From Candidatus Bathyarchaeia archaeon (GTDB lineage: Archaea; Thermoproteota; Bathyarchaeia; Bathyarchaeales; Bathycorpusculaceae), in the NCBI GenBank assembly GCA_049521795.1, contig JBEKOM010000001.1, forward strand, positions 128,001-192,000: a DNA stretch of 64,000 bases, read 5' to 3'. Position 1 is the first letter of the stretch, and every line of letters begins with the position of its first letter. This document shows positions 44,872 to 50,756 of this stretch, in pieces. Under the pieces are notes generated by a model that worked only from the letters and a program-made list of their open reading frames with translations, did no database searches and was not told the DNA's origin. The position numbers and the translations under genes are program-made.

Positions 44872-46377
44872 ATGGGAGACCAGCCGAAGATCGCATGTGG
44901 AGTATTTGCAGCTGTAAACTACGATAAGCGGCCAGTGTTTCAAAACATTTATTGGGGTTTACGGGCTGAAAACCACAGGGGACATCAGTCTCATGGTTTC
45001 CTCACGTATTTTGACGGAAAGTTCCACGTTCACAGAAGCCTCGACCTCGTGCCGAAGATTAGAACGAGCGCAATTCAAGAATGGTTTGGCCGGTTGCCTG
45101 GAAATGTCGGCATTGGAAACGTGAGGTACACAACGTCCGGAAGATGCGACGAGAAATCGCTCGTGGAAGGCACGCAACCAGTGACAGCTTCAAAACAAGG
45201 CCATGGGCTCGCGATTTCCTACAACGGCAACGTGGTCAACACGTTCGAGCTTCGGAAAGAGATATCCAAGGAGTTTCCACAGTTTACCAGTGAATGCGAC
45301 GCAGACCTAATCTGCTATAAACTGCTGATCGAAGTCTTGAGAGGAAAAGATCTAACGTCCGCCGTTGGGACATGCATGGAAGAAATCGACGGAGCCTTTT
45401 CTGTGGCGTGCATTGACCAAGACGGCAATCTCTTCGCCTTCAAGGACCCACATGGAATAAGACCGTTGTGCGCAGGCCACAGCGAAGACCATTCAACGTA
45501 TGCATTCTCGTCTGAAACCGTCAGTTTAGACATAAACGGTTTCGTAAGAGATTTCGAGCTGTTGCCAGGAGAGCTGGTCACGGTTTCAAACAAGGGGTTT
45601 CAAAGACAGAAGCTCATAAAAGGGAAAGTAAAGGCTTTCTGCGCCTTTGAATTCGCATACTTTGCAAGGCCAGACTCACGGTTTGACAGCAAGTACGTCT
45701 ATGAGATTCGTGAAGAATTTGGAAGAAACCTTGTGAGAGAGAATCCGAAGGTTGTCAAGGACGCGGACATAATTCTTTCCGTGCCTGAAACAGGGGACGA
45801 CTCGGCCCTCGGCGTTCACGAAGCTTCTGGGTTGAGATGGGAGAGGGCTTCACGAAGACACCGCTACGTAACCGAGAGGGCATTCATCCTGCTTAGCAAA
45901 GACCGAAGCCCAACGATAGAGAGGAAAATCAACATCCTCGGTCCCAGAATCGAAGGAAAACGCATCATAATAACCGAAGACAGCATCGTCAGAGGAGACA
46001 CGACAAGGGTCATAATTGACAAACTGCGCAGGATGGGCGCCGAGAAAGTGTACGTTTTCGTCACTTTTCCACGGATAATCGGACCATGTCTGTACGGAAT
46101 AGACATGGCAACATACGGCCAACTCATAGGCTCAAGACACAGCACGGAAGAAATCGCAAAGATCATAGGGGCAGACGGCGTGTGCTACCAGTCACTCGAA
46201 GGCCTGGTACAAGCAACAGGGTTCAAGCAAGACGAGTTGTGCACGGGATGCATAACAGGCAAATATCCAACACCGCTGGCCCAAGCAATAGCCGATGAGA
46301 TGAAGAAACGGTTCTCGCAGGGTTTTGAAGAGAGAGAAAGACTGTACGAAATGGAAGAAGCTGTTCCTAGAGCCTAG
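44872..46377 (+). CDS. purF: Amidophosphoribosyltransferase
   Basis: Propeptide plus CGVF, HRG, VRYTT, CAFEFAYFARPDS, EDSIVRGDT, PCLYGIDM, CTGC. Confidence 0.93.
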   Translation: MGDQPKIACGVFAAVNYDKRPVFQNIYWGLRAENHRGHQSHGFLTYFDGKFHVHRSLDLVPKIRTSAIQEWFGRLPGNVGIGNVRYTTSGRCDEKSLVEGTQPVTASKQGHGLAISYNGNVVNTFELRKEISKEFPQFTSECDADLICYKLLIEVLRGKDLTSAVGTCMEEIDGAFSVACIDQDGNLFAFKDPHGIRPLCAGHSEDHSTYAFSSETVSLDINGFVRDFELLPGELVTVSNKGFQRQKLIKGKVKAFCAFEFAYFARPDSRFDSKYVYEIREEFGRNLVRENPKVVKDADIILSVPETGDDSALGVHEASGLRWERASRRHRYVTERAFILLSKDRSPTIERKINILGPRIEGKRIIITEDSIVRGDTTRVIIDKLRRMGAEKVYVFVTFPRIIGPCLYGIDMATYGQLIGSRHSTEEIAKIIGADGVCYQSLEGLVQATGFKQDELCTGCITGKYPTPLAQAIADEMKKRFSQGFEERERLYEMEEAVPRA

Positions 46378-46406
46378 CGCAAGAACTGGTCTTCACGGTC
46401 AATCCG

Positions 46407-47834
46407 ATGGCAGACGGGTTACTCATGGAAAAAGTGGGCGTGCTTGTCGTTTCTTATGGGTCAAGAGAAGTAGCCATGGTGGACGCTTTTGCCCGCAGCC
46501 GAAACTACAAAGTGGAGATCTACATTGCTGATAAGCAACGCAACCCCTTCAACGCGAAGAGGGCAGCCAAACACGTTGTAATACCTGACTTGAATGTTGA
46601 AGAAATCTGCAAATTCGCAGAGAGGAACAAGCCTGGAATTGACTTCGGTATCGTGGGCACTGAAAAACCGATAATCGAGGGAATTCGGGATCTCGTGGAG
46701 AAACGAACAGGAATACCCATGATCTGTCCAACAAAGCGATGTGCTATCGAGGGAAGCAAGGTTCAACAACGGCTCCTCTTCAAAAGAGTCGCCCCCGAAG
46801 TCAACCCGCGCTTTAAGATATTCAACCCAAAAGAGTACAAAACCGTTGCAGAAGTCAAGAAAGACGTTTACGATTGGCTCGACAAACTGGCTGACCAAGC
46901 TGTAGTTAAACCGGACAAGCCAGCAGCCGGAAAAGGCGTCGGCGTCTGGGGCGACCACTTCTCGAACCGAGAACAACTGTTCGAACACTTCCTCTCAAAC
47001 TACCAACACGGTTCAGTGATAATAGAAGAAAAAATCGAAGGAGAGGAATCAAGCTTTCAGGCGTTCTGCGACGGAAAACATCTTCTACCTCTGCCGGACA
47101 CCAGAGACTACAAACGGGCGTTCGACGAGGATAAGGGGCCGAACACGGGAGGAATGGGTTCGTACAAGGGCGTCGGAGACGTGTTGCCGTTTCTATCTGA
47201 TGCTGATCGTGCCAAAGAGCTGAACGTCGTCAACACGATCTTTCAAGGATGGAAAGGAGAAGACAGTTCAGCCCTTCGAGGCGTCCCTTTCTACGTTGCC
47301 TTCATGCACACGCGCAGAAAACTGAAGATTCTTGAGAACAACAGTCGACCGGGAGACCCCGAGATGATCAACATAATGCCCGTCTTGAAAGATGATTTCC
47401 TTGATGTATGTTACAAAATGTTGGAAGGAAACCTGACAAGGCTCCAATTAGAAAAAGCCGCGACAGTGGTAACCTACAAGGCTCCACCTTCCTACGGCGG
47501 ATACGCAGAAACCTTCCCAAGCCTTGTCAAAACAGACAGCGTTGACAGACCAGTCGACCTGGCGAGAGCTTATGAATTGAGCAAGAAATATGGTGACGAT
47601 ATTCGAATCTACCCCGCATCGATGGAAAAACGTGAAGGCAAGACCTTCGCCCTCAAATCCAGAGCCGTGTGCGCCGTGGGCATCAGCGAAAGCATAGAAA
47701 AAGCTCGGCAGATCTCACTTGAAGGCTTGAAGGCAATACGGGGTGGATCCCTCTGGAATCGAACCGACGTAGCCTCAGAAAACCACATAGAGAAAAGCGT
47801 AAAGCACATGGAGAAGCTGAGGCACAAGCCGTGA
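46407..47834 (+). CDS. purD: Phosphoribosylamine-glycine ligase (divergent)
   Basis: GSRE, EGSK, KPD..AAGKGV, DYKRAFDEDKGPNTGGMGS, ENNSRPGDPE. Confidence 0.88.
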   Translation: MADGLLMEKVGVLVVSYGSREVAMVDAFARSRNYKVEIYIADKQRNPFNAKRAAKHVVIPDLNVEEICKFAERNKPGIDFGIVGTEKPIIEGIRDLVEKRTGIPMICPTKRCAIEGSKVQQRLLFKRVAPEVNPRFKIFNPKEYKTVAEVKKDVYDWLDKLADQAVVKPDKPAAGKGVGVWGDHFSNREQLFEHFLSNYQHGSVIIEEKIEGEESSFQAFCDGKHLLPLPDTRDYKRAFDEDKGPNTGGMGSYKGVGDVLPFLSDADRAKELNVVNTIFQGWKGEDSSALRGVPFYVAFMHTRRKLKILENNSRPGDPEMINIMPVLKDDFLDVCYKMLEGNLTRLQLEKAATVVTYKAPPSYGGYAETFPSLVKTDSVDRPVDLARAYELSKKYGDDIRIYPASMEKREGKTFALKSRAVCAVGISESIEKARQISLEGLKAIRGGSLWNRTDVASENHIEKSVKHMEKLRHKP

Positions 47835-48913: not shown

Positions 48914-48915
48914 GT

Positions 48916-49830
48916 TTGATCAAGAAAGACTTGATTGAAGACACGTATGCCGAAGCCTTTTCAGGATTATACTGCCGCGTCTTAGTGACCGCGGATGACG
49001 AAGAGACAGTTAAGAAGGCTGCTGACGATGCGACCGCAACGCCTTCAGGTGTTATAGGTAGACTTGACAGCGGAGTCGAAAGACTGCTGGGGAAGAGTGA
49101 AACGCCCGATGCTCGAAGAGGAGCAATCTTGCAGTTCTGGAAGGGCCTGGACAGAGGAAAACCTCTGGAAGGCATGCTTGACCGTTTTGAAAAGGAGCTT
49201 TCCTACCGAATTCGTCAAGACATCTTGGTGAAGCCTTTCACAGCGGTCTTCGACGCTTTGTCCGTGGAGCCTGAGGGGAAAATGGACATGATGGAAAGGG
49301 TTGGCCACTGCGGAGACGGGTATGAGTGGGAAGAGCAACTGTACGGAAAGAAAGTGATCGTCGTCCCAATCATGGTGCCTGACTTTCTCATAGAGCGTTT
49401 CATCGGCTACGCGAGAGGAATCGCTGGCGGCAACTTCTGGTACATGTGCAAAACGAAAAAACAAGTAGTTCTCGCCGGAAAGAAGGCGCTGGCAGCCATA
49501 CATCAGGTTGAGGGCGTAACAACGCCATTCGACGTCTGCTCAGCCGGGTCGAAGACTGAAACGCGCTTTCCCCTGATAGGGCCCACCACAAATCATCCGT
49601 ACTGCCCCTCCCTGAAGAGGAAGTTAAAGACCGAGTCCAAAGTGCCAGAAGGCGTCAACTACATCCCAGAAATAGTGATCAACGGCATCTCCATTGACGC
49701 AGTTAGAAAAGCAATGAAGGCCGGCATAGAAGCGGTTTTGAGCGTTGATGGCGTGGTGAGGGTTTCTGCGGGAAACTACGGTGGAAAGCTGGGTGAACAC
49801 AAGATAAATTTGAAAGAGCTGTTTCGATGA
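48916..49830 (+). CDS. Formylmethanofuran-H4MPT formyltransferase-like protein (divergent paralog, EhaS-like)
   Basis: [43 protein letters not shown]. Confidence 0.88.
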
Positions 49831-50756
49831 GCAGGCTCGATGCTATAGGATTCGGCGCCCTCAACGTTGACAAGCTGTTTAAAGTGAACAGAATAGCCGC
49901 TGCTGAAGAAGAGAGCTTTGTAGCCTCTCACTCAGAGACTTGCGGCGGCTCAGCGGCAAACACCATGGTGGCCTTGGCAAGACTTGGCTGCAAAGTAGGC
50001 TTCATCGGCAAGATTGCCAGCGACGCTGAAGGAAGAATGCTGCTTCAAGATTTTCGAAAAGAAGGCGTTGATACAAGAGGCGTAACGGTTGCGACGACGG
50101 GAAGAAGCGGCAAAGTAATGGGTTTCGTGGGCAAAAGGGGAGAACGCGCATTGTACATAGACCCGGGCGTGAACGACGCAATAAAACTCGCCGAAATAGA
50201 CACTGAATATGCGTCAAACACTAAATTCTTGCATTTATCATCCTTCGTTGGAAGACAGTCGTTCGAAACACAGAAAAAACTCGTTAAAAAGCTGCCTGAA
50301 AAAGTCAAGGTGAGCTTCGACCCTGGAGCACTGTACGCGAGAATCGGATTTGCGAAGCTGAAGCCCGTCTTAGACAGGACCTCTGTGATGATGCCTAACG
50401 CGGGTGAACTGGCCTTACTGACGGGCAAGAGTGACTACAAAGCGGGCGCACGATTGCTAATTGACGAAGGGGTTGAAGCCTTAGCTGTGAAGCTGGGAAG
50501 CAAAGGATGCTACGTCATGGACAAAGAAGAAAGCTGCCTAGTGGAACCCTTCAAAGTCGAGGTTGTTGACACGACTGGAGCTGGCGACGCGTTCGACGCT
50601 GGCTTCATCTACGGACTACTCTCCGGCAAGAACATCAATGAAGCCGGAAAAATAGGCAATTTCATCGCCTCAAGGTCTATCACCGCTATGGGCGCCAGAG
50701 CTGGCCTGCCAACACTTGACGACTTGAAGAAATCTCTTGGCACAAGTCGAAATTAG
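49827..50756 (+). CDS. PfkB/ribokinase-family (nucleoside) kinase
   Basis: [25 protein letters not shown] overlap with the Ftr-like gene. Confidence 0.9.

Follow-up and report, generated by a model that had tools for sequence, protein, structure and literature searches.

A HAD-fold protein, an Ftr paralog and a PfkB-family kinase as a candidate module for glycinamide ribonucleotide formylation in Bathyarchaeia

A 64,000-nucleotide stretch of the genome of a Candidatus Bathyarchaeia archaeon (GenBank assembly GCA_049521795.1, contig JBEKOM010000001.1, positions 128,001 to 192,000 of the forward strand; hereafter, the window) was analysed, and three adjoining genes directly after purF and purD were studied. 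They encode an EhaR-like protein of the HAD fold, a paralog of the formyltransferase Ftr (Ftr2) and a PfkB-family kinase. Taken together, the data suggest that this EhaR-Ftr2-PfkB module converts glycinamide ribonucleotide (GAR) to formylglycinamide ribonucleotide (FGAR), the third step of purine synthesis, in the slot of PurN or PurT; the probability of this reading is put at roughly two in three. Such a role had been proposed in an earlier note made from this DNA, and it is now supported by a missing step in the genome, by synteny, by phyletic complementarity and by in-situ exchange of the formyltransferase.

The de novo synthesis of purines is standard textbook material; nevertheless, a 2011 manual survey, in its passages on this step, found no GAR formyltransferase in Archaeoglobi, Methanobacteriales and Methanopyrus (PMC3261824). 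Three named genes in the PurN/PurT slot make the question of the missing enzyme directly testable, and a folate-dependent version of the module, described below, is open to testing in E. coli. If the proposal is true, the module would be a third, unrelated solution for GAR formylation and the first link of the methanofuran (MFR)/methanopterin one-carbon (C1) pool to purine C8, and the annotations "Ftr" and "EhaR/S/T" would have to be reassigned in thousands of genomes and in metabolic models.

Gene order in the window and purine enzymes in the genome

The genes purF (44872..46377, + strand; amidophosphoribosyltransferase, 501 amino acids) and purD (46407..47834, +; GAR synthetase, 475 amino acids) precede the module. 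PurF matched TIGR01134 over its full length with 311.9 bits (cut-off 350). PurD, which is of a divergent type that accompanies the module, contains the GARS_N/A/C domains and reached 244.6 bits with TIGR00877 (cut-off 288). They are followed by the genes for the EhaR-like protein (47831..48913, +; 360 amino acids), a proposed GAR phosphatase or phosphotransferase; for Ftr2 (48916..49830, +; 304 amino acids, PF01913 and PF02741), a proposed glycinamide-amine formyltransferase; and for the ribokinase-like PfkB protein (49827..50756, +; 309 amino acids, PF00294 with 187.4 bits), which is proposed to restore the 5'-phosphate. All five open reading frames (ORFs) lay on the + strand exactly where the earlier note had placed them. 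Direct reading of the junctions also reproduced its description of a GTGA overlap between purD and the EhaR gene (47831-47834), a 2-nt gap between the TAG stop codon of the latter and the TTG start codon of Ftr2 at 48916, and an ATGA overlap between Ftr2 and PfkB (49827-49830).

As had also been noted, the genes for the subsequent steps lie 3.5 kb downstream of the trio, and neither purN nor purT was found among the window proteins. The downstream block consists of purM for step 5 (54328..55404, +; TIGR00878, 253.6 bits, cut-off 236.35), purS (55462..55713, +; PF02700; TIGR00302, 74.6 bits, cut-off 39), purL for step 4, whose product consumes FGAR (55710..58091, +; TIGR01736, 671.2 bits, cut-off 525.75), and purQ (58095..58913, +; PF13507 GATase_5, 222.3 bits).

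The contig is part of a metagenome-assembled genome of 2.44 Mb in 69 contigs (98.75% complete, 4.37% contaminated), and close relatives of the window proteins are named Bathyarchaeota or Bathyarchaeia. The genome-wide profile search that the earlier note had put forward gave no match to PurN (TIGR00639), PurT (TIGR01142) or Formyl_trans_N (PF00551), with control matches in 12, 14 and 12 of 14 named genomes, respectively. There was likewise no match genome-wide to PurH or FolD, both of which were matched in the control genomes. PurP was present and was the only aminoimidazole carboxamide ribonucleotide (AICAR) formyltransferase found. FwdA (811 bits), Mch (409 bits) and a second, canonical Ftr (Ftr1, on contig C5) were also present. 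Since the purF and purD of the window are divergent, they were considered as possible paralogs belonging to a different pathway, and this was ruled out: each is single-copy in the genome according to tblastn, the other purF match being only 26% identical. Therefore, they are working purine genes. In this genome, then, steps 1, 2, 4, 5 and 9 are covered by known enzymes and step 3 is without one, while the route of C1 units via MFR and tetrahydromethanopterin (H4MPT) is present with no sign of formyl-folate metabolism.

Synteny, phyletic pattern and exchange of the formyltransferase

Synteny was compared in the best 80 loci, taken from as many records and containing EhaR proteins 53-90% identical to that of the window; the denominators given are the loci with enough flank. 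All 80 were Bathyarchaeia-like, one of them being labelled Thorarchaeota. The purD gene was located within 300 nt upstream of EhaR in 73/73 loci, and purF was upstream in 71/71. Ftr2 was found downstream of EhaR in 74 of 77 loci (70 within 300 nt, L015, whose match overlaps the end of EhaR, added by hand, and three at 1.0-1.9 kb), PfkB was found downstream in 72 of 75, and purL was within the available flank in 60 of 66. The linkage of the trio to pur genes, which had been predicted from the window, is thus conserved. Three loci (L034, L038 and L056) were without adjoining Ftr2 and PfkB genes; in their genomes, an Ftr2-type gene is found at another place (479-498 bits), and Formyl_trans_N was not matched.

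Split operons (L034, L038, L056, G043 = L096, L097) keep purF-purD-EhaR intact, with Ftr2 located elsewhere; in G043, the Ftr2-PfkB pair is about 16 kb away. The locus labelled Candidatus Thorarchaeota (L045) is a 3.6-kb contig whose EhaR-Ftr2-PfkB proteins are 58-70% identical to those of the window, and it may represent a binning error or a transfer.

The occurrence of the module was then compared with that of PurN and PurT in a class sample of 121 genomes (G000 included), each at least 80% complete, using five queries. EhaR was matched in 52 genomes, Formyl_trans_N in 44, and purD at E up to 1e-30 in 101. Ftr2-type genes, defined by at least 280 bits or, in G058, by a 71%-identical fragment beside EhaR, as against at most 213 bits for the Ftr1 type, were matched in 48 genomes. 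Full-length PurT-like genes of at least 175 bits were matched in 12, the next-best matches having at most 64 bits and lying in ORFs of roughly 1,100 amino acids; these Ftr2/Ftr1 and PurT-like/other ATP-grasp thresholds were set after the score gaps had been seen. None of the PurT-like matches reached the TIGR01142 cut-off; the protein of G016, when re-scored, reached 471.9 bits with PRK09288 (cut-off 339).

Among the 101 purD genomes, which are kin and do not amount to 101 independent trials, 44 had EhaR and Ftr2 only, 38 had Formyl_trans_N only, and 11 had a PurT-like gene only. EhaR occurred together with an atypical PurN-like Formyl_trans_N protein, and no Ftr2, in four more; one (G001) combined EhaR and Ftr2 with a PurT-like gene, and three (G041, G050 and G095) had none of these. 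It had been held against the proposal in advance that PurN or PurT might routinely accompany the trio; with a single double in this sample and four genomes in which the PurN-like enzyme replaces Ftr2, this was not the case. The module and PurN-type or PurT-like genes are almost mutually exclusive across the Bathyarchaeia sample. The module was present in 14 families of the sample, and family f11 included two genomes with the module, one with PurN, seven with a PurT-like gene and one with none. In a phylum sample of 151 genomes, a query with the EhaR domain matched 17, all in families of the Bathyarchaeia class, and 0/131 genomes of other families.

The same pattern bears on the view that the module serves another formyl need, either the release of formate from formyl-MFR or formyl-H4MPT for PurP or the formylation of AICAR. 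PurP, which requires formate, is the sole AICAR formyltransferase identified in this genome, and FhcD, a homolog of Ftr, works in a formate-releasing complex of methylotrophs, as described in the part of PMC6926001 devoted to it. However, the exclusion is with the GAR-specific PurN and PurT, in whose slot after purD the module lies; no FhcA-type hydrolase is encoded in the operon, and step 3 would stay without an enzyme. This view is therefore considered very improbable.

In the loci read, PurT (G016) and a PurN-like gene (G047) also lie directly after purD. Thus, PurN, which is folate-dependent, and PurT, which depends on formate and ATP, share with the module the step and the slot and are exclusive with it; unlike them, Ftr2 has an unrelated fold and a donor presumed to come from the MFR/H4MPT pool, and it always has the HAD protein and PfkB alongside. 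Direct exchange was found in two annotated loci, G034 (L085:3338-10093, - strand) and G028 (L086:4353-11066, - strand), in which the gene order is purF-purD-formyltransferase-EhaR-PfkB-FolD: a PurN-like formyltransferase replaces Ftr2, EhaR and PfkB are kept, and FolD is added. This formyltransferase also follows purD in G010 and G002, where an EhaR-PfkB pair is located elsewhere. A 599-amino-acid protein, P0291 (Logan, JGI), is a fusion of an atypical PurN-like formyltransferase to EhaR, the formyltransferase part being 52% identical to that of G034. Apparently, this is an in-situ non-orthologous displacement of a GAR formyltransferase. Because both EhaR and PfkB stay when Ftr2 is exchanged for the PurN-like enzyme, they appear to be integral parts of the module and not bystanders. 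The earlier note had the module fed by the H4MPT/MFR pool; this may hold for Ftr2, but the module as such is not tied to that pool, since 4 of the 52 EhaR genomes have a PurN-like enzyme in the place of Ftr2 and FolD follows PfkB in the two annotated loci.

Formyltransferases of the PurN type were aligned (5 EhaR-associated, 5 longer PurN-like and 6 canonical PurN sequences). The EhaR-associated enzymes have WFS[ST]GRD in place of the N-terminal SG.G[ST]N of the others, a loop that we take to hold the phosphate of GAR in E. coli PurN. The NLHP and D residues are kept in all 16 sequences; the catalytic residues of PurN are given as His108 and Asp144 in the passage on this enzyme by Brown et al. 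(PMC3261824). The longer PurN-like type (267-320 amino acids; L093:4928-5767, L094:4819-5766, L126-L128) retains the SG.G[ST]N loop intact and is extended at its C terminus. Two proteins of this type, when rescored, reached about 100 bits with TIGR00639, below the cut-off of 150.1; the type lies directly after purD in G047 and is common in families f18, f15 and f25.

PurD scores fell into two groups on either side of the TIGR00877 cut-off of 288: EhaR genomes gave 222-270 bits, whereas most of the remaining genomes gave 300-505 bits. The higher-scoring of these two PurD types is the one that accompanies PurN or PurT. In a quick maximum-likelihood tree of 35 PurD rows picked by hand, a branch of length 1.91 (SH-aLRT 100) separated 11/12 rows from EhaR genomes, 3/3 from genomes with EhaR and the exchanged formyltransferase and 3/12 from PurN genomes (G061, G012 and G065); the PurD of G031 was placed elsewhere, on a long branch. 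Within f11, the PurD proteins split by module type and not by family, a pattern that points to differential loss or to transfer of whole operons. Therefore, purD goes along with the module.

Properties of the three proteins and the proposed route

No Pfam family was matched by the EhaR-like protein at E up to 0.001, and its NCBIfam matches were only weak ones to HAD-IIB/IB, the best being TIGR01484 with 25.8 bits, which did not reach the cut-off of 41.8. A search of 1.84 billion cluster representatives yielded 634 relatives with E values up to 0.001, and 213 of them had values up to 1e-30. Few of these carried names, and the named ones were only from Bathyarchaeota and Methanomassiliicoccales/Methanomethylophilaceae; relatives carry the JGI name "energy-converting hydrogenase A subunit R". 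The closest solved relative, by sequence (E 3.3e-29, 25% identity), was AF1437 of Archaeoglobus fulgidus (PDB 1y8a), a structural-genomics protein without an assigned function. Foldseek comparison of this structure with the AlphaFold model of EhaR (predicted local distance difference test score, pLDDT, 95.1) gave template-modelling (TM) scores of 0.80/0.92, and the next matches were phosphoserine phosphatases (E 4.5e-06 and weaker, TMq 0.42-0.47) and ThrH (1rku). The model shows the Rossmann-like core fold of HAD proteins. The HAD motifs D8-C-E10-G-P, S107-T-S, K212 and G234-D-S-I-T-D239 did not vary among 29 Bathyarchaeia rows, and their conservation in a set of 20 diverse rows was at least 90%; two residues past the nucleophile Asp, a Glu is found in place of an Asp. 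With all four motifs unchanged across the 29 rows, it may be concluded that selection maintains a site for phosphoryl transfer.

Longer fused relatives of the window EhaR were not found in one search for relatives, which is weak evidence for their absence. Two proteins of 899-964 amino acids (P0313 and P0321) have an N-terminal ATP-grasp domain with PurT/PurK-like motifs fused to an EhaR of the DWEGPW subtype. They were examined as possible PurT-EhaR fusions and were not counted as support, because the likeness to PurT consists of two short motifs and the single metagenome locus located (L098) is without pur genes.

In Ftr2, both lobes of Ftr are present at full length (PF01913 FTR, 145.7 bits, residues 6-152; PF02741 FTR_C, 194.9 bits, residues 155-302). 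The protein was 38% identical to Ftr1 of its own genome, and it matched the solved Ftr proteins (PDB 1ftr, 1m5s and 1m5h; FhcD, 6s6y) at E 3e-56. Its score with TIGR03119 (one_C_fhcD), 245.5 bits, was below the equivalog cut-off of 292.6. The earlier note had regarded grouping with canonical Ftr as fatal to the proposal; given the identity to Ftr1 and the bimodal scores in the 121 genomes, Ftr2 does not group in this way. When 29 Ftr2 and 21 Ftr1 sequences of Bathyarchaeia were aligned, 57 positions were common to both at a level of at least 90%, including the Glu of EIVING, whereas 33 positions were fixed in Ftr2 and rare in Ftr1. In addition, Ftr2 has a specific 9-residue insertion and a 2-residue deletion. 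The Glu in question, E252 of Ftr2, aligns with the solved Ftr proteins; the catalytic Glu of M. kandleri Ftr is presumably Glu245. In FhcD, Glu252 is described as the oxyanion-stabilising glutamate in the pertinent part of PMC6926001. The retained catalytic core and the differing conserved loops are consistent with a change of one substrate, without being proof of it. Cysteines C132 and C178 are fixed in Ftr2, Ftr1 has instead two conserved Cys at the positions of D102 and K106 of Ftr2, and C208 and C230 are common to both.

According to the current annotation, Ftr2 would be an ordinary second Ftr isoenzyme for Wood-Ljungdahl flux, and the HAD and PfkB proteins would be unrelated sugar-phosphate enzymes. 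Indeed, Ftr2 exceeds the cut-off of the Ftr subfamily model NF002554 (348 bits against 297), relatives are named Ftr by both JGI and NCBI, and with the catalytic Glu kept among the 57 common positions, the canonical Ftr reaction remains compatible with the sequence. However, Ftr2-type genes occurred only in EhaR genomes (48/48), and an Ftr1-type copy was also kept in every module genome checked. A purD match was missing from 20 genomes, of which 15 had none of the genes compared, 3 had EhaR and Ftr2, and 2 had Formyl_trans_N; that is, purD-less genomes are mostly without the module. The isoenzyme view also does not account for the in-place exchange of Ftr2 for a PurN-like enzyme and leaves the module genomes without PurN or PurT unexplained, and we regard it as improbable. 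The chemistry of Ftr is formyl transfer between a pterin nitrogen and a primary aminomethyl group; Ftr2 is a separate paralog located in purine operons, and its acceptor is proposed to be the amine of glycinamide and not MFR.

The PF00294 match of the PfkB protein spans residues 10-296. Its best NCBIfam match was ribokinase (TIGR02152, 171.1 bits, cut-off 299.65); ribose-1-phosphate kinases were also matched below their cut-offs (134-141 bits), and no equivalog cut-off was reached. The translation contains NVD, GG and DTTGAGD stretches, which we take to be motifs of this family, the last corresponding to the catalytic DTxGAGD. The aminoimidazole riboside kinase of Salmonella is likewise a PfkB kinase and phosphorylates the riboside of an intermediate of the purine pathway; it may be regarded as a precedent for the proposed step, with the difference that it serves salvage, outside the main pathway.

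Interaction of Ftr2 with EhaR was assessed by predicting a complex of one EhaR and two Ftr2 chains from the 29-row alignments of these proteins. The score was 0.60 (runs 0.60, 0.50 and 0.63), against 0.18 for the best of three controls, and the verdict was "weak support"; at least 85% of contacts were common to the runs, and the partner pLDDT was at least 88. The mark applied is reached by 58/80 solved complexes and by 2/110 mismatched pairs; those that reach it with a score of 0.60 or under comprise only 7 of the 80 solved complexes, but both of the mismatched pairs.

Gene content, synteny, phyletic complementarity, the fusion and motif conservation were observed directly; which molecules serve as acceptor and donor, and in what order and by what chemistry EhaR and PfkB act, is inferred as follows. 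EhaR would remove the 5'-phosphate of GAR, or pass it on, and the formyltransferase would act on glycinamide riboside. Ftr2 would take the formyl group most likely from formyl-MFR or N5-formyl-H4MPT, made with FwdA, Ftr1 and Mch, and pass it to the primary amine of the glycinamide moiety, whereas the PurN-like substitute would draw on formyl-folate instead. The phosphate would then be restored by PfkB with ATP, giving FGAR for PurL. Alternatively, EhaR could restore the phosphate as a phosphotransferase, with PfkB priming or salvaging; ThrH, a structural neighbour of EhaR, is a phosphotransferase. A riboside scheme is the simplest one because a phosphatase-type protein, a ribokinase-type protein and an exchangeable formyltransferase always occur together and are absent where an ordinary PurN or PurT works. 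With ATP, the overall stoichiometry of the riboside cycle is that of PurT. The absolute odds of this cycle of dephosphorylation, formylation and rephosphorylation, which is the favoured mechanism and is counted as part of the module reading, are judged to be a little below even.

Also within that reading, Ftr2 or its PurN-like substitute could formylate GAR directly, leaving EhaR and PfkB an auxiliary role in the supply of ribose or ribose phosphate for phosphoribosyl pyrophosphate (PRPP), in riboside salvage, in regulation or in scaffolding. This is the simplest chemistry and is free of ATP cost, PurL would presumably pull a transfer that is near equilibrium, and the matches of PfkB to ribokinase and ribose-1-phosphate kinases point in the same direction. 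However, EhaR was present in 52/52 genomes with a module-type formyltransferase and in 0/49 purD genomes with only PurN-type or PurT-like genes, and a role in ribose supply would serve both groups equally. The fusion of EhaR to a formyltransferase in P0291 also argues against an auxiliary EhaR, and the absence of the SG.GSN stretch from the EhaR-associated enzymes argues against direct action on GAR. Direct formylation with auxiliary partners is thus considered unlikely, at perhaps the weight of a secondary hypothesis, and the riboside cycle is preferred.

Related trios in other archaea

Comparative sampling covered one archaeal class, and the euryarchaeal side of the argument rests on published work. 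The statement in the earlier note that some archaea are without recognisable PurN and PurT was borne out: the missing GAR formyltransferase is an open question in Brown et al. (2011), where, in the sections concerned, no purN or purT was identified in two Archaeoglobi, four species under "Methanomicrobiales" and M. kandleri (PMC3261824). The genera named there under Methanomicrobiales belong to Methanobacteriales. The same sections stress that M. thermautotrophicus is a purine prototroph (PMC3261824). In a 2023 survey, purT was reported, in the part on this gene, for all surveyed thermophilic methanogens but M. kandleri (PMC10025317). Chadwick et al. (2022) described a divergent Ftr2 clade from anaerobic methanotrophic archaea (ANME) of groups ANME-1 and ANME-2a/b, Archaeoglobales, M. 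kandleri and Methanothermobacter, and noted that ANME-1 is without PurN and PurT (PMC9012536); the passages on the two subjects leave the Ftr2 clade and the missing PurN unconnected. The relevant parts of both papers, of 2022 and 2023, still report the GAR formyltransferase as missing (PMC9012536, PMC10025317). In full-text literature searches, no publication was found that connects GAR formylation with Ftr2 or EhaRST, and none combining glycinamide ribonucleotide and methanofuran, and PMC9635834 makes no mention of EhaR, EhaS, EhaT, ribokinase, formyltransferase or purine.

A trio of this kind had also been placed by the earlier note at the end of the eha operon of Methanothermobacter. This was correct: EhaS is Ftr-like, EhaT is ribokinase-like, and both are co-transcribed with ehaA-R according to the operon description of Kaster et al. 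(PMC3087415), while the HAD relatives are those named EhaR by JGI. In that description, such functions for EhaS and EhaT were considered very unlikely (PMC3087415). The ehaR-ehaS-ehaT genes represent the same three families as the module, and Methanobacteriales are also without PurN and PurT in the survey cited (PMC3261824); the Methanothermobacter trio is linked to the hydrogenase operon, whereas that of Bathyarchaeia is linked to purF-purD, and their orthology rests on names and the published Ftr2 clade. As the names imply, the three proteins could assist the energy-converting hydrogenase Eha as accessory subunits or in its maturation, a role with which the co-transcription with ehaA-R would agree. 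In Bathyarchaeia, however, the directly upstream gene was purD, and not a hydrogenase gene, in 73/73 loci; the trio genes overlap or abut purD in the window, and the formyltransferase is exchangeable for a folate-type enzyme, with FolD added in the two annotated loci. The contention of the earlier note that the trio is not a hydrogenase accessory set is thereby upheld, and the accessory role is hardly credible.

It is possible, with the odds somewhat against it, that the same trio, working as a nucleoside-level shunt, is the sought GAR formyltransferase of Methanobacteriales, Archaeoglobi, Methanopyrus and ANME-1. If so, it would make sense of the unusual genes that close the eha operon: purine synthesis would drain formyl groups from the C1 cycle, and ehaRST would stand at the end of the operon for this reason. 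Eha supplies anaplerotic reduced ferredoxin for methanogenesis, as stated in the part of PMC3585446 on this hydrogenase, and a formyl drain into purines would fit that anaplerotic role. A conflict in C8 labelling, presented by Brown et al., in which C8 comes from acetate C2 in Methanosphaera stadtmanae and does not in Methanobrevibacter smithii (PMC3261824), could dissolve if C8 came from the H4MPT/MFR pool. This pool would be filled from serine or acetate in M. stadtmanae, which is stated in a passage of PMC5011839 to be without active formyl-MFR dehydrogenase, and from CO2 in M. smithii.

Besides the Ftr features of Ftr2, the kinship of the sampled genomes and the way in which the thresholds were set, several points weigh against the proposed function of the module. 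For plain transformylation, a phosphatase and a kinase would be superfluous, and the riboside cycle costs ATP and is without precedent at step 3. One genome (G001) has the module together with a PurT-like gene of 175 bits. In f15 and g43, the EhaR-type PurD occurs with an ordinary PurN-like gene (intact SG.G[ST]N) and no EhaR; therefore, the module is dispensable given another formyltransferase. Because the same PurD type is paired with an ordinary PurN-like enzyme, the product of the EhaR-type PurD is most likely ordinary GAR. An EhaR-like subgroup (P0314, P0351, P0355, P0365, P0377 and P0390) is without the nucleophile Asp of HAD proteins, and the EhaR family may have a second, non-catalytic role. 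The named members of the subgroup are from Methanomassiliicoccus intestinalis, Methanomassiliicoccaceae and Methanoplasma, Methanomassiliicoccales organisms that, to our knowledge, are without Ftr. The ATP-grasp-EhaR gene (L098:10001-12895) has restriction-modification, UvrD-helicase, SIR2-like and AcnX genes as its neighbours and no pur genes in the locus, and this context suggests that the family may have other roles as well. On the side of the literature, methanopterin-bound formyl was deemed an unlikely donor by Brown et al., although their argument, in the passage concerned, was made with respect to the N10 form (PMC3261824). The Methanothermobacter trio, as described in PMC3087415, is co-transcribed with the hydrogenase operon and not with pur genes. 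Moreover, ANME-2a and ANME-2b carry Ftr2, and PurN is not among the absences reported for them in the corresponding part of PMC9012536, which names only ANME-1 and ANME-2c as being without PurN; this is an apparent co-occurrence.

Other features of the window were recorded around the purine genes. An Asp-tRNA synthetase gene is located upstream of purF. A scan of the operon for sigma-70 promoters and terminators gave matches at the level of shuffled sequence, the sigma-70 model being unsuited to archaea. Between the two pur blocks, there are a tRNA gene (51202-51275, - strand), which was the sole Rfam match in the window scan, a gene for a NosD-like beta-helix protein of 522 amino acids (51366-52934, - strand) and a 233-amino-acid ORF without a family match (52986-53687, - strand). 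A winged helix-turn-helix gene (53736-54143, + strand) lies upstream of purM and might encode a regulator.

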